Source of the DNA: Acidimicrobiales bacterium
GTDB lineage: Bacteria > Actinomycetota > Acidimicrobiia > Acidimicrobiales > Salinilacustritrichaceae
NCBI GenBank assembly: GCA_037968675.1
Contig: JBBKVY010000095.1
Coordinates: 7,294 to 71,293, forward strand
Direction of reading: 5' to 3'
DNA: 64,000 nt
In this document: in pieces, positions 5,622 through 53,969 of the stretch
How positions within the stretch are numbered: position 1 is the first letter of the stretch
Layout: the number at the start of each line of letters is the position of its first letter
The notes under the pieces: generated by a model
Told to the model about the DNA's origin: nothing
Seen by the model: only the letters and a program-made list of their open reading frames with translations
The model's database searches: none
Made by a program: the position numbers and the translations under genes

Positions 5622-7540
<1,919 letters not shown>

Positions 7541-7544
<4 letters not shown>

Positions 7545-8470
7545 TCGCCTGCCTCCTGCAGTTCACGAGTCGGTGCGTTGGACTTGTAGACCTCGAGGAT
7601 CTTGTGTCGATCGCTGTCGGAGAGGTCGTCGAACTCGTCGACACCGAGCGCGCCGTTGCGGAGCGCGTCGGCGAAGACCTCTTCGCAGGTGACGACCCGG
7701 TCGCCCTCTTCGAAGCAGACGTCGTCTTCGGCGACGCCGGTCACGACGGTGAGCGGGAAGCTCAGGTTGCCCACGGTCACGAGCACCGCGAAACCGATGG
7801 CGAAGTTACGTCGCCAGGCGTTGTACTTCGGGTTGTTGATGCCGAGGCTCTGGAACATGCTCCAGGCGCCGTGCCAGAGATGGATGCCGAGTGCCACGTT
7901 GGCGATGACGTAGATGGCGGCGACCGGCGCATTGGTGAGGCTTGCCTGCAGGTTCCGGTACACGTCGCCGCGGACGAAGTCCGGGTTGACGAATCCCCAC
8001 GTCAGATCGGCGAGGTGGAAGGCGAGGTAGGCGAGGATGATGACGCCGGTCCAGCGCATCGATCGGCTGGCGGCGCTGGCGGCGATGTAGTCACGGCTCG
8101 TGGCGTAGCCGCCGGCCTGGGCCCGGCGATTCATCCGGGTCAGGCTGTAGGCGGAGTGGATGTGGAGCACGAAGGCCACGATCAGCCCGATGCGTGCGAT
8201 CCAGAGAAAGACGGTGCGGGGCAGGATGGGTACGGCGATCTCCCGGAGGAACTCGCCGTACTCGTTCATGCCGTGGGCGCCCTCGTAGAGATGCAGGTTG
8301 CCGATCATGTGGTAGGCGACGAAGCCCATCAACATGATCCCGGTGAGGGCCATGACCCACTTCTTGCCGACCGCCGAACGGTAGAACTCCACCGGCCACG
8401 GCGCGGGGCGTCGGGCTGGATGGACCGGCGCGACCTGCCCGCCGGCAGCCGCGTTCTCCCTGGTTTGCAT
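7541..8470 (-). CDS. sdhC: Succinate dehydrogenase cytochrome b subunit (single large anchor type) with C-terminal extension
   Basis: Motif [13 protein letters not shown], heme-ligand His in YHMIGNL, LHIHSA, FHLADL and IHLWHG. It overlaps the sdhA start (ATGA). TACGTT lies 6 nt before the ATG. Confidence 0.92.
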
Positions 8471-8544
8471 GGTCCGAACGTACCCCGCGATCAGGCGGGT
8501 TCCGAACTCACGGACTCGACGTCGTCGGCGTCGGCCCCCGACGG

Positions 8545-10695
8545 CTACGACGTCGAGTCCGAGGTGATGGCGGACTCGTAGCGGTTGGTGACCTCGTCGT
8601 CGCCGACGCGACCGGTCAGCGAGAGCGAGAGATCGCCCGCCGCATCAGGGACCTCGAATTGGATCGTCCCGATCCGCGCGCACGAATCCGCGGGCACGTC
8701 GCCCTCGAACGCCCACGCGTGGCCACCGCCCGACCAGGTCAGGCGGGCGTCGACACGGCCGGAGAGATCGACCCGGCGATCGGAGACGACGTGTACGTCG
8801 AGGGCGACCGGGTCCCCGGGGTCGAGCGATGCGGGCAGTCGGTCGGCGACCACGATGACCGGCTGGCAGGCGGCAGCCAGTGCGTCGTAGGCGAGCTTCG
8901 GAGCCCGTTCGTGGTCGAGCACCGACCAGGTGATGGCCGGGTGTGCGTCGGCGAACGAGAACTGTGCGAAGCCACCCGTGGGCCGGTACTTCAACCGTCG
9001 CAGCGTCTCGATGTGATGTCGGACGACCGTCGCCTGGTACTCCTGCGTCGCCCGCTTCCACGAGTCGTAGGTGTGGCCATCGCGCGGCACGTACTTGTCG
9101 AGGATCGACCGCTGGAGGTTGTGGGTGGTGGTCAGTTCCTCCCAGGCGAGATCGGGCCACGCCGACGGATCGATGAAGTCGTCGGTCGGGGGGATGGACT
9201 GGGCCCCGAATTCGGTCGGGAAGCGGACCTGGCTCGGCAGTGCCTTCGCGAACCCGGGGAAGTCGCGCTCGTTGCCGAAGTACCAGCCGAAATAGAGATG
9301 GCTGTCGGTGCCCTGGAGTCTGGGCAGGTGGGGCAGGACGCCCGAGTGGGCGATGGTGGGCCGGGTTCCGTCGGTCCGGTCGATGGCCCGCTTGACGGCG
9401 CGATCGAGCACCGACTTGTTCCACGTGGGGAGCTGCATCGACGCCAGCGCCCGCACGCCCATCTGCGCCGTCCGCTTCGGGTCGGCGAACGCATCGGCGT
9501 CGATGTCGAGACGCATGGGCTCGTTGTGTCCGCACCAGATCGCGATCGACGGGTGGTGGCCGAGCATCGAGACCATGCCGCTCGCCTGCCGCACCGCCTG
9601 TTTCTTGATCTGGCGGGCGTACCCCCACTGGAGTGGGAAGTCCTGCCAGACGAGCATCCCGGCTTCGTCGGCGGCGTCGTAGGTCTCCGGACGGGCGACG
9701 TGACCGTGGATGCGGACCAGATCGAGCCCCGCTGCCTTCGCGAGGTCGATGTCGTGCCGGCAGTCGGCCTCGGTGGCCTCGGCGATCGCCATGCGGGTCG
9801 GGCCCATGTTGGTGCCCTTGAGGAACAGCCGCTCCCCGTTGACACGCATCGTCCACTTCTTCAGGGCGATCCGACGCAGTCCGGTCCGGAAGCGGCGCGT
9901 GTCGGACACCGAGCTGCCGGCGGCGTCACGGAGACGCACCTCGACCTGCACGGTCTCGAGCGCCGCATCGCCCAGCGCATGGGGCCACCAGAGTCTCGGT
10001 CGGTCGATGACGACGCTCCACTCGACGGTGTTGGTGCCGGTGGCGAGGGTGTGGTCGAGACCGTGGTCGATCGAGCCGACCGTGGTACGGACGTGGGCAT
10101 CGGTCCCCTCGGTCGCATCGAGTTCGGCCACGAAGGCCAGTACGGCGCGCTCTTCGGTCGCTTCGATGCAGCGCGTCGTCAGGCGCGAGATGCGGACCGG
10201 TCCGGTCTGGGTGAGGTGCACGGGACGCCAGATGCCGCCCGGGTTCCAGTCAGGATCGATCGCGTCCCAGTGCTGGAACACGCCCGTGATGTTGCGCTTG
10301 TTGGCCCGGTCGGTCTGCGGTGCACACGCCAACTCGACCGCGAGGATGTGCTCGGAGCGGTCGCGGAGCTGATCGGTCACCTCGAACGTGTGCGGGAGGA
10401 AGTAACCCTCGGTGTCGCCGAGGTAGGTGCCGTCGAGCCAGACGTCGCCTTGGTAGAAGAGCCCGTCGAAACGGACCCACCACCGTCGATCGGCAGGTCC
10501 GGGCGGCTGCGCGAACGACGTGCGGTGCAGCATCGGGCCGTCGTGGTCTCCGAAGGCCGGTGTGGTCCGCCAGTGTCCCGGCACCTCGATCGGTTCCCAT
10601 GCCGACTCGTCGAGGTCGGGCTCTGCGAAGGTCCGCCGCAGCTCGTCGTCGGCAGGCACCGCCACCCATCGATCGGAGATCGGCCGTTCGTTCAC
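8545..10695 (-). CDS. Glycoside hydrolase family 2, beta-mannosidase-like
   Basis: GH2 sugar-binding domain (RFDGLFYQGDVWLDG), GIWRPV, VWQDFP, acid/base WCGHNEP and nucleophile TEFGAQS. Confidence 0.85.
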   Translation of the reverse strand: MNERPISDRWVAVPADDELRRTFAEPDLDESAWEPIEVPGHWRTTPAFGDHDGPMLHRTSFAQPPGPADRRWWVRFDGLFYQGDVWLDGTYLGDTEGYFLPHTFEVTDQLRDRSEHILAVELACAPQTDRANKRNITGVFQHWDAIDPDWNPGGIWRPVHLTQTGPVRISRLTTRCIEATEERAVLAFVAELDATEGTDAHVRTTVGSIDHGLDHTLATGTNTVEWSVVIDRPRLWWPHALGDAALETVQVEVRLRDAAGSSVSDTRRFRTGLRRIALKKWTMRVNGERLFLKGTNMGPTRMAIAEATEADCRHDIDLAKAAGLDLVRIHGHVARPETYDAADEAGMLVWQDFPLQWGYARQIKKQAVRQASGMVSMLGHHPSIAIWCGHNEPMRLDIDADAFADPKRTAQMGVRALASMQLPTWNKSVLDRAVKRAIDRTDGTRPTIAHSGVLPHLPRLQGTDSHLYFGWYFGNERDFPGFAKALPSQVRFPTEFGAQSIPPTDDFIDPSAWPDLAWEELTTTHNLQRSILDKYVPRDGHTYDSWKRATQEYQATVVRHHIETLRRLKYRPTGGFAQFSFADAHPAITWSVLDHERAPKLAYDALAAACQPVIVVADRLPASLDPGDPVALDVHVVSDRRVDLSGRVDARLTWSGGGHAWAFEGDVPADSCARIGTIQFEVPDAAGDLSLSLTGRVGDDEVTNRYESAITSDSTS

Positions 10696-38178: not shown

Positions 38179-39225
38179 ATGTCGCGTGTTGCGGTCACCG
38201 GTGCGTCCGGTCCGGTGGGTCGTCGTCTGGTGTCCAGGCTCCTCGACGACCCCTCGGTGAAAGAGGTCGTGTCCATCGATCGGAACCATGCCGGCGTCGC
38301 TGACGACCGGGTCGTCGCCCACCGGATCCAACTCAAGGGCGCCGACCTCGATCCGGTGTTCGCCGGCATCGATGTCGTGTGTCACCTGGCCGGCTCCGAT
38401 CCGCTGGAGGACCGGGCTCCCGACCACGATCTGCACACCACCGCGCGGGTCCTCGACGCCGCGAGGCGTGCGGGCGTCGCCCACGTCATCGTCCGGACGT
38501 CCGCGACCGTGTACGGCGCGTGGCCGGACAATCCGGTTCCGCTGACGGAGGCGGTCACGCCTCGTCCGAACGCCGAGTCGACGTGGGTGCGGCACCGCAG
38601 GGCCATCGAGGAGCACGTGGAGGCGTTCGCCGAGTTCTCGCCCGAGGTCGTCGTCTGCATTCTGCGGCCGTGCGTCACGGTCTCCGACGCCGGTGCGGAC
38701 GAACTCGGTCGCGTGCTCGCTGCCGCGCGGCTCGTCGGCACGACCGACGACGCGCCGTCCGCGCAGTTCGTCCATGCCGACGACGTGGCCAGCGCCATCG
38801 ACGTCGTCCGCCGGGAGCGGGCCGACGGTGTGTTCAACGTCGCACCCGACGGCGCACTCGAAGCCGACCTGATCCGGGCGCTCGTGGGCGGCGCTCCCCG
38901 CATCGCGGTCCCCGAAGCCGTGGCCCGCCGACTCACCACGTTCGGCTGGCGCTATCAGCTGGCGCCGACGCCACCGGGATTCGTCCCCTTCGTGCGTCAC
39001 CCGTGGGTCGTCGGGAATGACCGCCTCCGAGCGCTCGGGTGGGTGCCTTCGCACACGAACGAGGAAGCGTTCGTGGCCGGCCACGCCGCAGCACCCTGGG
39101 CCCAGGTCTCGCCCCAGAGGCGACAGGAACTCGCGCTCGGCGTCGCCGGCGCCGCGGTGGTCGGCATGCTCGCCGGGACGGTCGCGCTCGTCCGCCGGCG
39201 ACTCCGGTCGGCTCGAGGCAGCTAG
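38179..39225 (+). CDS. NAD-dependent epimerase/dehydratase family protein
   Basis: VAVTGASGPVG, SATVYGA and QFVHADDVASA, followed by a C-terminal TM segment. Confidence 0.88.
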   Translation: MSRVAVTGASGPVGRRLVSRLLDDPSVKEVVSIDRNHAGVADDRVVAHRIQLKGADLDPVFAGIDVVCHLAGSDPLEDRAPDHDLHTTARVLDAARRAGVAHVIVRTSATVYGAWPDNPVPLTEAVTPRPNAESTWVRHRRAIEEHVEAFAEFSPEVVVCILRPCVTVSDAGADELGRVLAAARLVGTTDDAPSAQFVHADDVASAIDVVRRERADGVFNVAPDGALEADLIRALVGGAPRIAVPEAVARRLTTFGWRYQLAPTPPGFVPFVRHPWVVGNDRLRALGWVPSHTNEEAFVAGHAAAPWAQVSPQRRQELALGVAGAAVVGMLAGTVALVRRRLRSARGS

Positions 39226-40451
39226 GAGGTCCTCTCGGCCAACGCCGCAGTCATCTCGACGACCCCGTCACCCCGTCGAACGTGCAGGATCACCGCGTCG
39301 CCCGGCGCTCGTCCCCGGAGTTCGGCGATCAGTTGGCTCATCGACCCGATGACCGCATCGTCGATGCCGACCACCACGTCGCCCGGTGTCAGGCCGGCCG
39401 CGGCCGCGGGGCTGTCCTCGAGCACGTCTTCGACCTTCGCGCCGCCGGAGAGGCCCATGCCGGCTGCGGCCGATGGATCGAGGTCGATCCCCTCGATGCC
39501 CAACCAGACGTGGCGGACGCGCCCGTACTCGATGAGCTGGTCGGCGGCGTGAACGGCGAGGTCGATCGGCATCGCCACGCCGTACGCGCGTTCCCGGTCG
39601 TCGGCAGCCGGCATCCCGCTGGCGATCCCGATGACCGCGCCGCTGGCGTCGAGCAGCGGCCCGCCGCGTGCGTCGACGGCTGGCGGGTCGTCGAGCAGGA
39701 TCATGCCGTGGAGGACGCTTCCCTCCGGGGTGCGGAGGCGGCGGCCGAGGGCAGACACGACCGTTCGGTCGATCGATGCGCCCCAATCGCCGCCGTCGGT
39801 GTGCCCCATCACGATCGCCTCGTGACCGACGCGAACGCCTGCGGCCGTGCCCAGGGGTGCGGGCTCGAGGTCGTCGGCGTCGATCCGCAACACCGCGAGG
39901 TCGGTGGCCTCGTCCACGCCGACCACCTCGGCCGGGGTCATCGGCCAGCCCTTGAGGCGGACCTCGATCGCGTCGGCGTCGGCGACGAGGGCAGCCGTGG
40001 TCAGGAGGTGGCCGTCGCTGCGTATCACGATGGCCGTGCCCGTGACGCGGGCGTCGCCGCGGGAGATGTAGACGCCGGCGACCGACGGCGAGGTCCGCTC
40101 GGTGATCGCGTGGATGCCGTCGTCTCCGACAGAGCTGGTCACGGGCTGGATCGCGACCTGGCGCTCGACGACTCGGGTGCGGGTCGCGAAGCCGCCGAGC
40201 GCAGCGACGAGCCCGATCGAGAGCGTGGCACCGATCAGCGCCGCCGCGGTGGCGAGGACGACGGTGTTGCGACTCGACGGGACCCCGGCACCGGGAGATT
40301 CGGGCTCGCGCGCCGCCGGGGCCGCCACCTCCGAGGGATGGCGCCAGATCCGGTCTTCGGGTGGCAACGGCGGACGGAACTCGATCGGATCGTCGGTCGA
40401 GTCGTGGTCGCCGTGCCCCTCGCCGGTATCGCCCGATGGCGGCAGTGGCAC
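39222..40451 (-). CDS. S1C trypsin-like protease with PDZ domain (HtrA-like, catalytic residues degenerate)
   Basis: FRPPLPPEDRIWRHPSE, a TM helix, LLTTAALV in place of TNxHV, ARGGPLL in place of NSGG, and a PDZ. GTG follows TAGGGT by 7 nt. Confidence 0.82.
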   Translation of the reverse strand: MPLPPSGDTGEGHGDHDSTDDPIEFRPPLPPEDRIWRHPSEVAAPAAREPESPGAGVPSSRNTVVLATAAALIGATLSIGLVAALGGFATRTRVVERQVAIQPVTSSVGDDGIHAITERTSPSVAGVYISRGDARVTGTAIVIRSDGHLLTTAALVADADAIEVRLKGWPMTPAEVVGVDEATDLAVLRIDADDLEPAPLGTAAGVRVGHEAIVMGHTDGGDWGASIDRTVVSALGRRLRTPEGSVLHGMILLDDPPAVDARGGPLLDASGAVIGIASGMPAADDRERAYGVAMPIDLAVHAADQLIEYGRVRHVWLGIEGIDLDPSAAAGMGLSGGAKVEDVLEDSPAAAAGLTPGDVVVGIDDAVIGSMSQLIAELRGRAPGDAVILHVRRGDGVVEMTAALAERTS

Positions 40452-40574
40452 CTGATCGACCCTACTGAGCCCTTCCGTCCCGCGGAGGTCGCGCCAGGTA
40501 CCGTGGGGCGCGATTCGATTCGGCTGCGATGGGCGACGCCGGAAACCGGCCCACTCGAGGAACGACTGGCTGCG

Positions 40575-41084
40575 ATGACTTCCCCGGACATGCTGGCGCC
40601 ACCGGCCCATGGCGACGACTGGCTGGGCCTGTCGTCGGTGGTGCTGCCGGTGCACGCGGCTGCGACGTGGGCCGCGCGCGCCGACTGCGGGGGCATCGTG
40701 ACCTTCACGGGCGCAGCGCGCGACCACAGCGAGGGCCGTCCCGACGTCGATCTGCTCGAGTACGAGGCGTACGAGACGCAGGTCGTCCCCCGGCTGGCAC
40801 GGATCGCGGTCGAGGCGCGCGCCCAGTGGACCACGATCGGCCGAATTGTCATGTTGCACCGGACCGGCCAGTTGGACGTGGGCGACGTCGCGGTCGTCGT
40901 GACCGTCAGCGCGCCGCATCGCGACGACGCGTTCGCGGGGGCGCGGTTCTGCATCGACACACTCAAGGCGACGGTTCCGGTCTGGAAGAAGGAGCGCTGG
41001 GCCGAGGGGTCCAGTTGGGGACTCGAGGCCCAGCACGTCACCGACCCGGAGCGTGCGCACCAGCACGCGGGAGACGGATCCTGA
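40575..41084 (+). CDS. moaE: Molybdopterin synthase catalytic subunit
   Basis: GGIVTFTGAARDH, LEYEAY, HRTG, SAPHRDDAF and LKATVPVWKKE. Confidence 0.92.
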   Translation: MTSPDMLAPPAHGDDWLGLSSVVLPVHAAATWAARADCGGIVTFTGAARDHSEGRPDVDLLEYEAYETQVVPRLARIAVEARAQWTTIGRIVMLHRTGQLDVGDVAVVVTVSAPHRDDAFAGARFCIDTLKATVPVWKKERWAEGSSWGLEAQHVTDPERAHQHAGDGS

Positions 41085-41469: not shown

Positions 41470-42474
41470 ATGGCCCGCGATCTGGCCATCGACCTCGGAA
41501 CGGCCAACACCCTCGTGTACGCCAAGGGCCACGGCATCGTGATGAACGAGCCGACCGTCATCGCGCTGAACAAGCGAAACGGCGATGTGCTGGCCATGGG
41601 CGCCGAGGCGTGGCAGATGATCGGTCGGACGCCGAGCTACATCGTGGCCGTCCGGCCCCTGCGGCAGGGGGCGATCACCGACTTCGACATCACGCAGCGC
41701 ATGATCCGCCTGATCCTCCAGCGCGCCGGCGTCAACCGCTTCAATCGCCCACGGGTCGTCATCTGCGTGCCGTCGGCCATCACCGAGGTCGAACGTCGGG
41801 CCGTGACCGAGGCTGCTCGGCGCGCCGGTGCCGCCGACGCCCAGCTGCTCGAACAGCCCATGGCGGCAGCCATCGGCGCCGAACTCCCCATCCACGAACC
41901 GGTCGCGAACATGGTCATCGACGTGGGGGGCGGGACGAGCGAGACCGCGCTCATCAGCCTGGGCGGAATCGTCGCGCTCCAGGCGGTGCGCGTCGGCAGC
42001 TTCGACATCGACGCAGCGATCCAGCACTACATCCGTCGCGAGTACGGCATCGCCATCGGCGAACGCACCGCAGAGGAGATCAAGATCGCCATCGGCTCGG
42101 CCTGGCCCGTCGACGACGACGTACGCGCCGAGGTGCGCGGTCGCGATCTCATGAGTGGGTTGCCGAAGACGGTCATCCTCACCACTCCCGAGGTGCGCGA
42201 GGCGATCGCCGAACCGGTCACGGCCATCATCGAATCGGTGATCTCGTGCCTGGGCAACGCCCCGCCCGAACTCGCCCACGACCTCATCGGTCAGGGCATG
42301 TACCTCGTCGGTGGCGGCGGGATGCTCAAGGGACTCGACGTGCGGATATCGGTCGAGACGGACATCCCCGTGACCTTGGTCGAGCAACCCCTCGAAGCCG
42401 TCGTGTTCGGCGCCGGTCGGTGCATCGAGCGCTACGACGACCTCAAGGTGATGTTCATGGGCGGGCGGCTCTGA
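41470..42474 (+). CDS. mreB: Rod shape-determining actin homologue MreB (no mreCD here)
   Basis: IDLGTANTLVY, DVGGGTSE, IGERTAEEIKI and VGGGGML. Confidence 0.93.
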   Translation: MARDLAIDLGTANTLVYAKGHGIVMNEPTVIALNKRNGDVLAMGAEAWQMIGRTPSYIVAVRPLRQGAITDFDITQRMIRLILQRAGVNRFNRPRVVICVPSAITEVERRAVTEAARRAGAADAQLLEQPMAAAIGAELPIHEPVANMVIDVGGGTSETALISLGGIVALQAVRVGSFDIDAAIQHYIRREYGIAIGERTAEEIKIAIGSAWPVDDDVRAEVRGRDLMSGLPKTVILTTPEVREAIAEPVTAIIESVISCLGNAPPELAHDLIGQGMYLVGGGGMLKGLDVRISVETDIPVTLVEQPLEAVVFGAGRCIERYDDLKVMFMGGRL

Positions 42475-49621: not shown

Positions 49622-50221
49622 TCAGGCGAGGAGATCCTCGGCGATCTGACGGACCTGTCGGTCGCGATCGTCGAGAGCGCGGCGGAGCGCTGCGTCGACC
49701 TGGGGACCCTCGAACGCAGCAAGCGCCACCACGGCTCGACGTCTGAGCGTGGCGCGCTCGTCGAGCGCGGCCAGTATCGCCGGGAGGCCCACGGGATCAC
49801 CGATGGCGCCGAGGGCCGCCACAGCGGCTTCGCGCACCAAGTGCTCGTCGTGTCCGGTCGCAACCCGCGCAAGCACCTGCGCCGCCGTGGTCTCGGGCGG
49901 GACGCGTTCGCCGCTCGCCCATGCGGCGGTCTCGGCGACGACCGGGTCAGGGTCGTCGATCAGGGACACGATCGACGGGGGACGATCCCCGGGGCGCCCC
50001 GCCGCGATGGTCGCCGCCCGCCGACGCACGCCCGCCTCGGGGTCGCGGAGCGCGTCCTCGAGTTCGCCGACGTGCACGGCGTCCAGGCGCGCCAATGCGC
50101 CCAGTGCGGTTGATCGAACCGAGCCCGAGGGGTCGCCGAGCAGCGTTCGTGCCGTGCGCACGTCTCCGGTGTGCCCGGCCACGGCAGCGGCTCGCCGCCG
50201 AGCCGCACCGTCGGCGCTCAT
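49622..50221 (-). CDS. HEAT-repeat protein
   Basis: Repeated D/P-x-x-x-VR-x-x-A-x-x-ALG units (DPSGSVRSTALGAL, EHLVREAAVAALG, DRQVRQIA). Confidence 0.85.
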   Translation of the reverse strand: MSADGAARRRAAAVAGHTGDVRTARTLLGDPSGSVRSTALGALARLDAVHVGELEDALRDPEAGVRRRAATIAAGRPGDRPPSIVSLIDDPDPVVAETAAWASGERVPPETTAAQVLARVATGHDEHLVREAAVAALGAIGDPVGLPAILAALDERATLRRRAVVALAAFEGPQVDAALRRALDDRDRQVRQIAEDLLA

Positions 50222-50658
50222 CAGATCGCGTTGCCGATGAGCTCGGCTGCACCACCGACGATCGCACCGAGCAGTGCGGCGATGCCCACACCGATGACCA
50301 CCACGATCACCACGAGGCCGACCAGGCTGAGCACGCGGCGTGCGATCGACGGCCGGACGAGATCGGCCAGTCGTCCCTCGACGGCCGTCTGAGACGCCGG
50401 CACCGAACCCCGCTGGCGTCGTCGCCACGGTCCGGACGACCTGCCTCGCAACGGTGGCGGCTCGTCGTCGGTCTCCGGTTCGGGGTTCGGTCGAGGAGCG
50501 CCTTCGCGGACCGGTGTCGCGTCCGCCACGGCGACGGCGGCGGCGGTCCGGCCGCGTCGGGATCCACCGCCGTTCGTGGCAGGCTTTCTCTCGGCCATGG
50601 ACACGGCCAAGAGGCCGACGCCACCACCGAGTACCACGAGCAGGATCAACGTGAGCAC
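50221..50658 (-). CDS. Hypothetical membrane protein (start uncertain)
   Basis: N-terminal TM helix, Pro/Arg linker and C-terminal TM helix (RRVLSLVGLVVIVVVIGVGIAALLG). TGATG coupling to the HEAT gene. Confidence 0.65.
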   Translation of the reverse strand: MLTLILLVVLGGGVGLLAVSMAERKPATNGGGSRRGRTAAAVAVADATPVREGAPRPNPEPETDDEPPPLRGRSSGPWRRRQRGSVPASQTAVEGRLADLVRPSIARRVLSLVGLVVIVVVIGVGIAALLGAIVGGAAELIGNAI

Positions 50659-51757
50659 AGACGAAGCGATGGTACCGGCGGACGCCGAGACGGTCGGGGC
50701 ATCGGCGCCTGTCCGTCGCCGGGTCTGGCGGTGGTGGTTGGCCGGGGGCGTGCTGTTCGCGTTGGCTGGAGCGGTCCTCGCTGCGGTCACGGTGACGATC
50801 CCGTACTACGAGTTCCGACCGGGATCCGCACGTCCCATCGCTGGGCTGGTCGAGGTGTCCGACGTGGAGTCCTACCCGCCCCAGAGCGACCTCGCCTACA
50901 CCACGGTGTCGTTGCGTCACAGCACCGTGGCGTCGTACCTCGCGGCCATGTTCGACGACGACATCGAGATCGTGGAGGACACCGTCGTCCTGGGCGACCG
51001 GTCCGAGACCGAGAACCGTCAGTTCAACCTGCAGCTGATGGACACGTCGAAACAGGACGCGATCCGCGTTGCGCTCGTCGCGCTGGGCTACGACGTCCCG
51101 ATCACCGTGAGCGGCATCGTGGTCGTGCGGGTATTGGAGGGGTCGGCCGCCGATGGGCTCCTGGCGGTCGGCGACGCGATCGTGTCGATCGACGGTGAAG
51201 AACTGGCGGTCGCGTCCGACGTCGCCCGGATCATGGACCCCAAGCAGCCCGGTGACGTGGTCACCCTGGGGGTCGAGCCCCCCGATCGATCAGAGATCCG
51301 TCCGGTCGAGGTCACCCTCGGCGCCGCACCCGACGACCCGAATCGGGGTGTCATCGGGATCGAGCTCCAACCGCGAGACCCGAACTACGAGTATCCGTTC
51401 CCGATCGACATCGACTCGGGCAGCGTCGGCGGTCCCTCGGCCGGTCTCGCGTTCTCGCTCGGCATCATCGACGTGTTGACCCCGGGCGAACTCACCGGCG
51501 GCCTCGACGTCGCGGTGACCGGCACGATCGACCGCGACGGCAACGTCGGCACGGTCGGCGGTGTGGTGCAGAAGACCGCAGTCGTGACCGGCGCCGGCTA
51601 CGACGTGTTCCTGGTCCCCCGCGATGAGGTGGACGACGTGCGCGCCCGGGCCGGAGACGACCTCCAGGTCATCCCGGTCGACACCCTGGACGAGGCCCTC
51701 GACGCCCTGGCCTCGCTGGGTGGGAGCGGTTTCGAGATCGCGGCTGCGCCCCGATGA
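50651..51757 (+). CDS. YlbL family PDZ/Lon-protease-like protein (start 50651 or 50669)
   Basis: PYYEFRPGS, MDTSKQDA, a PDZ, and Lon S16 motifs VGGPSAGLAF and VGGVVQK. Confidence 0.9.
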   Translation: MSTDEAMVPADAETVGASAPVRRRVWRWWLAGGVLFALAGAVLAAVTVTIPYYEFRPGSARPIAGLVEVSDVESYPPQSDLAYTTVSLRHSTVASYLAAMFDDDIEIVEDTVVLGDRSETENRQFNLQLMDTSKQDAIRVALVALGYDVPITVSGIVVVRVLEGSAADGLLAVGDAIVSIDGEELAVASDVARIMDPKQPGDVVTLGVEPPDRSEIRPVEVTLGAAPDDPNRGVIGIELQPRDPNYEYPFPIDIDSGSVGGPSAGLAFSLGIIDVLTPGELTGGLDVAVTGTIDRDGNVGTVGGVVQKTAVVTGAGYDVFLVPRDEVDDVRARAGDDLQVIPVDTLDEALDALASLGGSGFEIAAAPR

Positions 51758-51840
51758 TCGCTCTCGACGCCTGATCGACCGGCTCGTCGACGTGTCGAGG
51801 GTCGCCGGCCGAGCCCGAGCCCGGGAATAGGGTTGCGGGG

Positions 51841-53907
51841 ATGACTGACGACCCGCGTATCGACCCGGCAGACCTGCGGGCGGTCCGGTTTCCCGGGTCG
51901 TTCCGTCGGTACGAGGCCCGTGCCGTCGACGAGTTCCTCGAGTCGGTCGCGCAGCGGATCGAGTCCACCAACGACATCGTCGACGATCTCCGTCGCCAGC
52001 TCGAGGACTCGGGCGTGCACGCCGCGGGCGGATCCACGGCATTCACCCTCCTCCCACGCGAGGAGCCGGTGTTCGACGCTTCGGACGCACCGGATACACC
52101 GGGCCCGGAGCCCGCACGGTCAGCGATGGCGCCGTCGGACGCACCGAATCTGGGGACGCTGAGCGACGACGAGCTGGTCGGGCTGGTGGGTCAGGAGACC
52201 GCACACGTCCTGTCGACTGCCCGCCACGCCGCCGACGACATCCGATCGAAGGCCGAGGAGTCCGCGGCCCGAGTGATCCGTGAAGCCACGGCCGAGTCCA
52301 AGCGGCTGGTCGACGAGGCAGAGCAGCGATCGGTCGAACTGACGGCCGAGGCACAGTCGGTGCGCGACGCCGCGGTCGGGGCGGCCGAGGAGGAGGGGCG
52401 ACGTCTCCGGGCCGAGGCCGAGGCGGCAGCGGAGCAGATCCGGGTGCAGGCCGATGCCGAGGCGGAAGCGGCAACCGAACACGCAACACGGATCCGCGGC
52501 GAGGCCGAGACCGAGGCGGCGCGTGCGATCGAAGAAGCACGTGAAGAGGGCCGAACCATGGTCGGTGAGGCCAAGGAGGTCCGGGCCCGGATCCTGGCCG
52601 ACCTCCAGCGACGACGCGACGCGGGCCGCTCGCAGGTCGAGCGCCTCGCCGCTGGTCGGGGGCGACTGCTCGATGCATACGCCACCGTGCGCGCCAACGT
52701 CGACGACATCACCACCCAACTCGACAGCGCGCTGGTCGAGGAGCCCGAGCCCGAATCCGTCGATCTCGAATCCGAGATCGACGGCGCTGCTGCCCACGTC
52801 GCCGCGGCGGAGGCCGAGCGCGCGGCTGCGTCCGCGGCCGACGACGAAACCGACGAACTCGACGATGCCGACGCGATGGATGACGGCGTGGTCGACGAAC
52901 CTGCGCCCGACGCACCTGCGGAAGGCTCGGCGACGGCCGACGAGACCGAGGCGGATGCGCCGTACGACCATGCGGGGGTGGCGGATGAGGACGGGTCGGT
53001 CGACGAGCGATCGGACGACCACGACGCGACCGGCGACCCGGACGATGGCGCGGAGGACGATTCGGAGGACGGCGACGTCGATGCGCTGTTCGAACGGATC
53101 CGGTCCGGACGGGCCGAGTCGGTGGCACGAGCACAGCAGGTACTTGGCGACGACGAGGGTTCCCCGCCCACACCCGAGTCCGAGCCCGAGCCCGAGTCCG
53201 CGGGAGCACAGGAGGCCGACACGATCGCGGACGAGGGCGGCGGCGCCGACCAGGTCCCCGTCGACATGTTGGCGGTCGGTCCGGTGCACGAACACCGGAG
53301 CGAGGTCGTCTCGAAGCTCGAGAAGTCGTTGTCGCGAGCGCTCAAGCGCCACCTCGCCGACGAGCAGAACGAGGTGCTCGACGCCCTCCGACAGACCGAA
53401 TCGACCGATGCCGGCGATCTGTTGCCGGTGCGCGACGCTCAGGTCGGCGGCTATGCCGACGTGGCGATCAAGGGCCTCGCTGCCGCGGCGAAGGCCGGCG
53501 CATCGTCGACCGATGGCGTCGAGGCCGACGTCGGACCCCTGGCCGTGCGCTTGGCCGAGTCGCTGGTCGACCCGTTCCGGCGTCGTATCGAGGACAGCGC
53601 AGCCGATGTCGAGGGCGATGCCGACGCCCTCGACGAGCGACTCCGTGCGCTGTACCGGGAATGGAAGGTCGAGCGCATCGGCCCTGTCGTGTCCGACGCG
53701 CTCTTGTCGGCCTTCGGGGCCGGACAACTCGCCGCTGCGCCCGACGGGGCTCGGCTGCGTTGGCTCATCGACCCGGAACAGGGTCCATGTCCCGACGCGC
53801 AGGACAATGCGCTCGCCGGAGCGGTCACCAAGGGCGAGTCGTTCCCCACCGGCGATGCCTGTCCGCAGGCGCATCCCGGTTGTCGCTGTCTCCTCGCGGT
53901 GGAGTGA
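51841..53907 (+). CDS. DivIVA-domain coiled-coil protein with C-terminal phage MuF-like domain
   Basis: N-terminal DivIVA motif (DLRAVRFPGSFRRYEARAVDEFLESVA), a long coiled coil, an acidic linker and a C-terminal W..D..C....G..F..G...P.AHPGCRC. TAGGGT lies 7 nt before the ATG. Confidence 0.8.
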   Translation: MTDDPRIDPADLRAVRFPGSFRRYEARAVDEFLESVAQRIESTNDIVDDLRRQLEDSGVHAAGGSTAFTLLPREEPVFDASDAPDTPGPEPARSAMAPSDAPNLGTLSDDELVGLVGQETAHVLSTARHAADDIRSKAEESAARVIREATAESKRLVDEAEQRSVELTAEAQSVRDAAVGAAEEEGRRLRAEAEAAAEQIRVQADAEAEAATEHATRIRGEAETEAARAIEEAREEGRTMVGEAKEVRARILADLQRRRDAGRSQVERLAAGRGRLLDAYATVRANVDDITTQLDSALVEEPEPESVDLESEIDGAAAHVAAAEAERAAASAADDETDELDDADAMDDGVVDEPAPDAPAEGSATADETEADAPYDHAGVADEDGSVDERSDDHDATGDPDDGAEDDSEDGDVDALFERIRSGRAESVARAQQVLGDDEGSPPTPESEPEPESAGAQEADTIADEGGGADQVPVDMLAVGPVHEHRSEVVSKLEKSLSRALKRHLADEQNEVLDALRQTESTDAGDLLPVRDAQVGGYADVAIKGLAAAAKAGASSTDGVEADVGPLAVRLAESLVDPFRRRIEDSAADVEGDADALDERLRALYREWKVERIGPVVSDALLSAFGAGQLAAAPDGARLRWLIDPEQGPCPDAQDNALAGAVTKGESFPTGDACPQAHPGCRCLLAVE

Positions 53908-53969
53908 ATCGCGCTCGACGGACCCTCGCGCAAGGGTCCTGAGCGCCCGTCGGTAGGATCGGACGCCAC

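Follow-up and report, generated by a model that had tools for sequence, protein, structure and literature searches.

A DivIVA-family scaffold protein of Acidimicrobiia with a predicted phage MuF-like domain at its C-terminus

In the 64,000-nucleotide stretch of Acidimicrobiales DNA analysed here (the window), an open reading frame (ORF) at 51841..53907 of the forward strand encodes a protein of 688 amino acids, followed by a stop codon, that joins a DivIVA-type N-terminus to a C-terminal domain related to MuF/SPP1 gp7, a minor head protein of phages. The protein is a cytoplasmic, multi-part scaffold of the DivIVA family, and its C-terminus either descends from the phage domain, having diverged in cells, or is an ancient relative of it. 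An earlier note, made from the letters of the sequence, had given exactly this ORF and had proposed a domesticated phage domain placed at the cell pole, acting as a metal- or DNA-binding module for chromosome anchoring or as a decoy against phages. Of this proposal, a host gene with a MuF-like domain on a genuine DivIVA N-terminal domain has stood, whereas the DNA-anchor and decoy roles have not. The architecture is new, a combination of two known domains of which one turns up unexpectedly in a cellular role: full-text literature searches on DivIVA with MuF, and on UPF0182, the family of the downstream neighbour, found no published description of it, and public annotation calls the homologs only 'DivIVA domain-containing protein' or 'hypothetical'. 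MuF proteins are among the commonest phage head proteins, found in roughly one tailed phage in three (PMC5576092); their function is unknown, and they have been reported almost only from phages and prophages. Here the MuF fold is a core, vertically inherited domain of the cell across a bacterial class, mounted on a well-understood membrane scaffold. The case illustrates cleanly either the exaptation of a phage part by cells or an old module common to both, and through the cellular family the question of what MuF binds can be approached anew.

The strongest evidence for the MuF relationship is the predicted fold, with which the profile evidence is consistent although it stays below thresholds. 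An AlphaFold model of the 210-residue C-terminal domain reached a pLDDT of 90.2 and a pTM of 0.87. When it was compared with BFVD by Foldseek, 35 hits were obtained at E≤1e-3, the best having E=2.8e-6 and TMq values rising to 0.81, and the top 50 consisted nearly entirely of phage head-morphogenesis proteins, minor capsid proteins, portal-MuF fusions and MuF-toxin proteins. The match extends over all 210 residues, beyond the Cys/His-rich tail, so that the whole length of the domain, and not its terminal motif alone, has the fold of phage MuF proteins such as Mu gpF and SPP1 gp7 (PF04233, TIGR01641; MuF1 of Jamet et al., 2017, PMC5576092). A PDB search with the C-domain profile and Foldseek searches of the PDB with both models returned generic helical bundles only, because no MuF structure has been deposited.

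At the sequence level, the best matches to the C-domain are phage portal-MuF fusions. The domain matches phrog_2662, which is named 'portal protein' and represents the portal-MuF fusion family, over positions 491-707 of 717, that is, in its C-terminal third, with E=6.4e-7. TIGR01641, the SPP1 gp7 family, gave E=0.24 and 11.8 bits against a cut-off of 39.65. A check of the last 210 residues against Phage_Mu_F, which the earlier note had suggested, came out divided: PF04233 did not hit the window protein at E≤10, nor in a search of the genome at E≤1, whereas 16 of 30 diverse family members scanned singly were hit at E≤1 (best E=1.8e-4). Among the same 30 members no other family recurs in more than four, and the best homologs reach about 19-20 bits, the gathering score being 29.6. 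In one distant homolog (L100), DivIVA and positions 3-111 of the 112 of Phage_Mu_F are found within a single protein. A reference MuF profile was compiled from eight sequences, comprising six above-threshold prophage MuFs of the same phylum, SPP1 gp7 and Mu gpF; hhalign aligned the family with it in the correct register at E=5.6e-4 to 7.6e-4 with a probability of 25-30%, and the family profile gave weaker results against single SPP1 gp7 or Mu gpF sequences. A tblastn search of 50,697 phage records found no close phage relative, the Cys/His motif being the only part matched, as in the portal protein of Brevundimonas phage vB_BpoS-Strzyga (E=2e-3). Taken with the PHROG match and the PF04233 hits in relatives, the predicted fold indicates that the earlier note was right about a MuF/SPP1 gp7-type C-terminus, and right over the whole 210 residues: the domain is, on the models, a distant MuF homolog with the MuF fold and motif that lies outside PF04233 as now delimited.

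Several differences set the cellular family apart from its phage counterparts. It scores below the Pfam and TIGRFAM gathering thresholds; the ARTE helix motif seen in five of the eight reference MuF sequences is not kept, and the motifs LKRxLADEQNxVLDxLR and YREWK are specific to the family. Phage and toxin MuF domains stand alone or lie N-terminal to a toxin, whereas the MuF-like domain of the window is C-terminal on a cellular scaffold. In portal-MuF fusions the domain is joined to the phage's own portal partner; here DivIVA takes that place in a cell, and sequence identity with those fusions is limited to the motif. While 85-87% of muf genes adjoin portal or terminase genes of the phage DNA-packaging module (PMC5576092), the cellular locus is a core one without either. 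A 244-amino-acid PF25310 (VG15) protein that ends in ...PPAHPGCRC and does not adjoin UPF0182 (L107; G025:C130:1253-1984) may represent a phage-type step from canonical MuF towards the cellular proteins; VG15 is also matched weakly by two members of the cellular family. Precomputed annotation of several homologs (P0024, P0034, P0060 and others) lists PF28068.1, which may be a recent family covering some portion of their length.

The C-terminal motif RWLIDPEQGPCPD...HPGCRC, which had been noticed at 53758-53900, is confirmed by conservation among 245 homologs. W641, H678, C681 and C683 are invariant or nearly so: H678 and C681 are present in 245/245 sequences, C683 in 244/245 and C650 in 232/245. 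The window protein, which ends five residues past C683, has W641, D644, C650-P-D-A653, G660, F668-P-T-G, C674 and H678-P-G-C681-R-C683. It thus contains the pattern D-x-x-(C/R)-x-x-(C/H)...G...P-x-H-P-x-C-R-C in a register that agrees with Mu gpF and the prophage MuFs, and it shares with phage MuF the motif order W...D...C-P-x-(C)...G...F-P...P-x-H-P-x-C-R-C. The first Cys pair is as variable in the cellular family as in the phage proteins. The 13 homologs without C650 all have Cys at position 653. Of 148 sequences with Ala at 653, the residue that the window protein has there, 108 carry Cys at 674; of 96 with Cys at 653, which gives a classical CxxC, only 19 carry Cys at 674 and 41 carry His. 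This pattern looks like the relocation of a ligand within a conserved Cys3His or Cys4 site, presumably a Zn-type site. A metal-binding role of the C-domain, as suggested earlier, is plausible because of the invariant His-Cys-x-Cys together with one or two further Cys residues.

The other end of the protein belongs to DivIVA. PF05103 matches the window protein at E=1.8e-8 with 34.9 bits (cut-off, 28) and TIGR03544 with 23.6 bits (cut-off, 22). A profile built from 17 family N-termini (A3) finds in the PDB B. subtilis DivIVA (2WUJ, E=1.5e-11), DivIVA 7O39 (2e-7), several GpsB entries including 4UG3 (1.6e-6) and Wag31 6LFA (1.4e-4). The DivIVA motif read by the earlier note is therefore well supported, by two curated thresholds exceeded and by the match to 2WUJ. 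A full-length AlphaFold model built from 32 homologs, from which the domain boundaries and the disorder map were taken, shows a helix-loop-helix in this domain and folds residues 481-688 compactly at the C-terminal end. Residues S-F21-R22-R-Y align at the sequence level with the SFRGY hairpin of 2WUJ, the family consensus being sfRGY, and F17 of window numbering is invariant in the N-terminal alignment A3. In B. subtilis DivIVA the SFRGY hairpin, with F17 and R18, is the membrane-binding tip. The helix-loop-helix with its F-R hairpin tip (SFRRY in the window, SFRGY in DivIVA) and the long helical stalk that follows are common to the window protein and the DivIVA/Wag31/GpsB proteins. Beyond these features the proteins part company. 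The window protein reaches only 40.8 bits on the Wag31 equivalog NF050102, against a cut-off of 260; its gene lies outside the dcw cluster; a disordered insert follows the N-domain; and about 390 extra residues, made up of the acidic tether and the MuF-like domain, are carried by none of the characterised DivIVA proteins. A separate canonical divIVA, for which the earlier note had advised looking, is present: it encodes 285 amino acids and closes the dcw cluster on contig C28, after ftsQ-ftsZ-yfiH-yggS-sepF. Its own score on NF050102 is 29.8 bits, also far below the cut-off.

The long helix of residues 118-295 is presumably a coiled-coil oligomerisation stalk, as judged from the model. It is 178 residues long and is preceded by the disordered insert of residues 62-100, so that the coiled coil claimed earlier is real as a long helix, while its estimated length of about 250 residues was too great. 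Residues ~122-176 of the helix correspond to positions 67-121, the later portion of the DivIVA Pfam model, and E119, A130, K137, E243, R259, L269 and R273 are invariant in it. An HflC-like similarity of residues 129-255 (52225-52605; PDB HflC 7VHQ, E=0.02; TIGR01932, E=0.13) was considered and set aside as compositional on account of a high bias score, Ala/Glu-rich repeats and similar scores for FliH and V-ATPase E/H. HflC is a modulator of FtsH, and the weak match, though probably compositional, is a curious one beside the link of UPF0182 to FtsH described below.

Between the stalk and the MuF-like domain lies the very acidic linker that the earlier note had described. Residues 301-412 include 45 Asp and Glu but only two Lys and Arg, giving a net charge of -43, and the tether varies in both length and sequence among the homologs. 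Its DVDALFERIR falls in a confidently predicted helix, residues 413-436, which is the sole conserved element of the linker, with F417, R419 and R421 each conserved at ≥90% in the alignment columns. The helix is short and amphipathic, with the consensus DVDxLFARIRAERAxxVAxAQxVL, amid unconserved acidic disorder. A strict regular expression found the linker motif in at least 74 of 182 full-length homologs, which is a lower bound: the strict N-terminal and linker expressions, and the initial Cys expression, were too crude, and the conservation figures for the motifs were taken from alignment columns instead. By its conservation the helix is a candidate docking motif, or second interaction site. 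Mimicry of the FtsZ C-terminal peptide by DVDALFERIR was rejected, as the FtsZ of this genome ends in DDDFDVPSFLK, a different pattern, and the linker motif is part of a 24-residue helix.

The distribution of the gene is that of a cellular gene rather than that of a prophage gene. When 301 genomes were sampled evenly across the phylum, the fusion gene was found in 15/15 genomes of the same order, and in the class in 22/22, three apparent non-carriers proving to hold a divergent copy when a deeper profile was used. Hits were also obtained in 11 genomes of other Actinomycetota classes, one of them a member of the Egibacteraceae, and the copies examined there retain the DivIVA N-terminus. Relatives are encoded in at least 549 species genomes and form 1733 clusters at 50% identity, so the fusion is not confined to this assembly; the nearest cultured relative, Actinospongicola halichondriae Hal317, is 85% identical over the domain. 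Canonical PF04233, by comparison, has a patchy occurrence, in 6/301 genomes of the phylum and in 0/15 of the order. Across 72 genomes the identity of the domain to the query follows that of UPF0182 (Pearson 0.86), and the mean identities to the query are 46.6% for the domain, 50.4% for UPF0182 and 43.1% for PDZ-Lon, the upstream neighbour. The frame is intact, and 29 residues are invariant and about 70 nearly invariant across 32 full-length homologs. The phyletic spread, the synteny and the parallel divergence fit vertical inheritance under purifying selection: the fusion gene belongs to the vertically inherited core of Acidimicrobiia and of certain other classes of Actinomycetota. Within about 12 kb on either side there is no portal gene, no terminase gene and nothing else of phage type, and the earlier view of a host gene with no prophage genes nearby holds. 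In one locus from another class (L099; G003:C4), two tandem copies of a coil plus MuF-like domain lie upstream of UPF0182 at ~6977-9668 in locus coordinates, both without a clear DivIVA N-domain by Pfam. Elsewhere (L115; G223:C10), a 466-amino-acid frame has a prophage-type MuF, with PF04233 above threshold, followed in frame by a region with an HEAGH motif, possibly a MuF fused to a metallopeptidase in the manner of polymorphic toxins.

The strongest functional clue, which the earlier note missed although it had placed the gene correctly between a ylbL-like PDZ and Lon_C protease gene and UPF0182, is adjacency to UPF0182. This gene follows immediately 3′ on the same strand in 72/72 loci with enough room to see it, and likewise lies downstream in 9/9 loci of other classes with a copy detected by tblastn. 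PDZ-Lon is found upstream in 53/63 loci with room, and tblastn also locates a HEAT-repeat gene upstream in many loci. UPF0182 (PF03699; MSMEG1959 / Rv3193c / cgp_0896) and PDZ-Lon form a known actinobacterial pair, which the window keeps in its usual order and orientation, but the pair is split in this lineage by the DivIVA-MuF gene. According to a 2026 preprint (bioRxiv 10.1101/2025.11.14.688347), UPF0182 is universal in Actinobacteria, has seven transmembrane helices and a periplasmic domain, is predicted to form a dome-shaped tetramer and is phenotypically linked to FtsH and YccA, that is, to membrane-protein quality control. The same work, on mycobacteria, corynebacteria and bifidobacteria, mentions no UPF0182 partner of the DivIVA-MuF type. 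The invariant pairing yields a concrete and testable hypothesis about the partner of the fusion protein, for a family that has homologs in mycobacteria and corynebacteria and has only recently been tied to FtsH and membrane-protein quality control.

An outline of how the protein might work is as follows. The F21-R22 hairpin would attach to the membrane from within, with a preference for places of curvature such as poles and septa, and the 178-residue helix would oligomerise the protein. The acidic tether, about 180 residues in all, would give the C-terminal module reach to its partners, with the helix of residues 413-436 perhaps serving as a second contact site, and the His/Cys site, probably with Zn, would stabilise the MuF-like domain. 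That domain is proposed to be a protein-docking module on the precedent of gp7, which binds strongly to the oligomeric portal (PMC6316719; PMC5576092) and is incorporated into capsids (PMC6316719). To what would it dock in a cell? The likeliest target is the UPF0182 oligomer, on its cytoplasmic side, with the neighbouring membrane protease as the alternative, and the outcome would be the positioning or regulation of the UPF0182/protease envelope module. By this analogy the fusion protein would be a membrane-targeted adaptor of that module acting through MuF-like docking, a reading to which we give an even chance. A bolder version, in which a MuF portal-docking module was captured once, early in Actinomycetota, and fused to DivIVA, and now, as a cytoplasmic adaptor, recruits or gates the oligomeric UPF0182 dome and through it FtsH-type quality control of membrane proteins at curved membrane (poles, septa), is tentative and rather doubtful. 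If this version is true, it provides the first cellular function for the MuF fold and a spatial regulator for the enigmatic UPF0182 family.

Several points weigh against the adaptor reading. The fold match compares one model with another, there being no solved MuF structure in the PDB, and the support for MuF from sequence alone lies below curated thresholds, with the window protein lacking a PF04233 hit and the hhalign probability being as low as given above. For targeting to the membrane or pole, and for metal binding, conserved residues are the sole basis. A docking insertion specific to carriers was sought in the cytoplasmic loops of UPF0182 and rejected, as loop lengths are the same in carriers (n=85) and non-carriers (n=12). 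In the 301-genome sample most Actinomycetota have UPF0182 without the fusion gene, so UPF0182 does not need the fusion protein. The fusion gene seems to have its own conserved promoter, and a hairpin and a -10-like hexamer precede UPF0182; adjacency of genes is no proof of contact between their products.

In a rival explanation the protein is a scaffold of DivIVA type at poles or septa, and its MuF-like domain binds something other than UPF0182, for example FtsH itself, the divisome, a cell-wall synthase or the tail of PDZ-Lon; the adjacency to UPF0182 would then reflect shared regulation or an old operon instead of docking. DivIVA, Wag31 and GpsB proteins are generally hubs for varied partners, and the N-domain profile matches GpsB and Wag31 as well as DivIVA; PDZ-Lon is upstream in most loci, UPF0182 shows no carrier-specific cytoplasmic feature, and the separate promoter would suit such a scaffold too. 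The adjacency to UPF0182 is, however, stricter than that to PDZ-Lon and persists across classes, and no other conserved neighbour was seen, which leaves this explanation possible but well short of an even chance. The chromosome anchor is unlikely. It supposes that the MuF-like domain binds DNA and tethers the nucleoid or origin to the pole, as in RacA-DivIVA or ParB-Wag31, and it draws on SPP1 gp7, called a DNA-binding protein in the title of Stiege et al. (2003) as cited in PMC6316719, on a Cys/His cluster that could form a zinc-finger-like element and on the conserved basic residues R486, K502, R503, R517, R580, R582, R606 and K609. Yet all the family members looked at have an acidic domain (median pI 4.87, median net charge -12, maximum 0; query pI 4.75, net -13), whereas SPP1 gp7 has a pI of 9.4 and a net charge of +11; the charge of the tether would repel DNA, and no par, smc or ori genes are found in the ~12 kb neighbourhood.

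The proposed phage decoy or sensor, in which the MuF-like domain would capture the portals of incoming or assembling phages, or act as a competitor of phage MuF, and so block the assembly of heads or the entry of DNA at the membrane, has in its favour that gp7-type proteins bind portal oligomers, that DivIVA would place the protein at the membrane, where phage DNA enters, and that neither this genome nor the 15 of the order has a canonical MuF prophage gene. Defence genes are typically patchy, island-borne and fast-evolving, whereas this one is carried throughout the class, keeps strict synteny among housekeeping genes and evolves no faster than its core neighbours. PADLOC-DB 2.0 gave no match for the fusion protein, PDZ-Lon or UPF0182, and the great distance of the domain from any sequenced phage MuF fits a mimic poorly, all of which makes a decoy very unlikely. 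As about 93% of chromosomal muf genes lie within prophages or prophage remnants (PMC5576092), a prophage remnant or the relic of a MuF polymorphic toxin, fused in frame to a DivIVA gene by chance and without selected function, also has to be weighed. MuF polymorphic toxins have an N-terminal MuF, a C-terminal toxin and an adjacent immunity gene, but here the MuF-like domain is the last one, and scans with Pfam, TIGRFAM and PHROG detected no toxin or immunity family in the fusion protein. A relic would also be at odds with the intact, strongly conserved frame, the hundreds of species that carry the gene and the phage-free surroundings. The conservation, the synteny and a C-terminal MuF with nothing after it make this explanation so improbable that we exclude it.

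The gene appears to be transcribed from a promoter of its own. The pattern GGGTCGCCGG-N19-TAGGGT-N7-ATG is common to the window and four relatives with 55-85% protein identity (L016, L017, L018 and L020), and the start codon is backed by an N-terminus, MxDDPRIDP, conserved among relatives. Leaderless actinobacterial promoters have a TANNNT hexamer fixed 7 nucleotides ahead of the start codon, and a leaderless promoter, as the earlier note proposed, is plausible here by its letters; a scan for the sigma-70 consensus upstream of the gene called no promoter. The conserved 10-mer GGGTCGCCGG could be a -35-like element or an operator; because the spacer is 19 nucleotides long, a regulator may bind here, and the element need not be a -35 box. 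Downstream, the 62-nucleotide gap before UPF0182 contains, by inspection, a -10-like hexamer besides the short hairpin listed in Table 1, which a terminator scan did not call because it has no T-run. With these separate signals, co-transcription of the fusion gene and UPF0182 is uncertain. The coordinates of the features are collected in Table 1.

Table 1. Features of the DivIVA-MuF fusion gene, its product and its immediate surroundings (positions in the window; residues of the fusion protein)
Feature	Position	Strand	Basis
DivIVA-MuF fusion gene	51841..53907	+	ORF list, 688-aa translation
DivIVA N-terminal (lipid-binding type) domain, residues 9-56, F21-R22 hairpin	51865..52008	+	PF05103, TIGR03544, 2WUJ match
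Disordered Pro/Ala/Asp-rich insert, residues 62-100	52024..52140	+	pLDDT <50; poorly conserved in alignment
Long Ala/Glu/Arg-rich helix, residues 118-295	52192..52725	+	AlphaFold single helix, pLDDT ~90-95
Hyper-acidic disordered tether, residues 297-412	52729..53076	+	pLDDT mostly <50
Conserved helix within tether, residues 413-436 (DVDALFERIRSGRAESVARAQQVL)	53077..53148	+	pLDDT 78-87
Second acidic, Pro-rich disordered stretch, residues 437-478	53149..53274	+	pLDDT <50 for 439-469; net charge -12
MuF/SPP1 gp7-like domain, residues 479-688, helical bundle and small beta hairpin	53275..53904	+	AlphaFold, Foldseek, profiles
Cys/His cluster C650...C674...H678-P-G-C681-R-C683	53788..53889	+	Conservation in 245 homologs
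Conserved upstream element GGGTCGCCGG	51801..51810	+	Identical in window, L016, L017, L018, L020
TAGGGT, TANNNT-type -10 candidate, 7 nt ahead of ATG	51828..51833	+	Same hexamer and spacing in four relatives
Short hairpin GACCCT-cgcgca-AGGGTC in 62-nt gap before UPF0182	53921..53938	+	Read from sequence
PDZ + Lon_C membrane protease (ylbL-like)	50576..51757	+	Pfam Lon_C and PDZ
UPF0182 membrane protein, 1007 aa	53970..56993	+	PF03699 E=1.7e-261
HEAT-repeat protein, divergent from PDZ-Lon	49622..50920	-	Pfam HEAT_2

The GC content of the fusion gene, about 0.70, is uniform with that of the flanking DNA. Within about 12 kb the neighbours comprise an HtrA-type protease, MreB, a liv-type ABC transporter with its binding protein, an AMP-binding enzyme, the HEAT-repeat protein, PDZ-Lon, UPF0182 and an MFS transporter. 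The MreB gene (41470-42474, +; PF06723, E=1.7e-124) lies about 10 kb upstream of the fusion gene and is adjoined in divergent orientation by the gene of the HtrA-type trypsin-PDZ protease (39222-41066, -). The longest ORFs of the HEAT-repeat and PDZ-Lon genes, on opposite strands, overlap by about 345 nucleotides at their 5′ ends, so that at least one of the true start codons must lie further downstream. The HEAT-repeat gene is frequently syntenic and has a weak match to PADLOC HEAT-ARM_XIII (E=1.3e-5).

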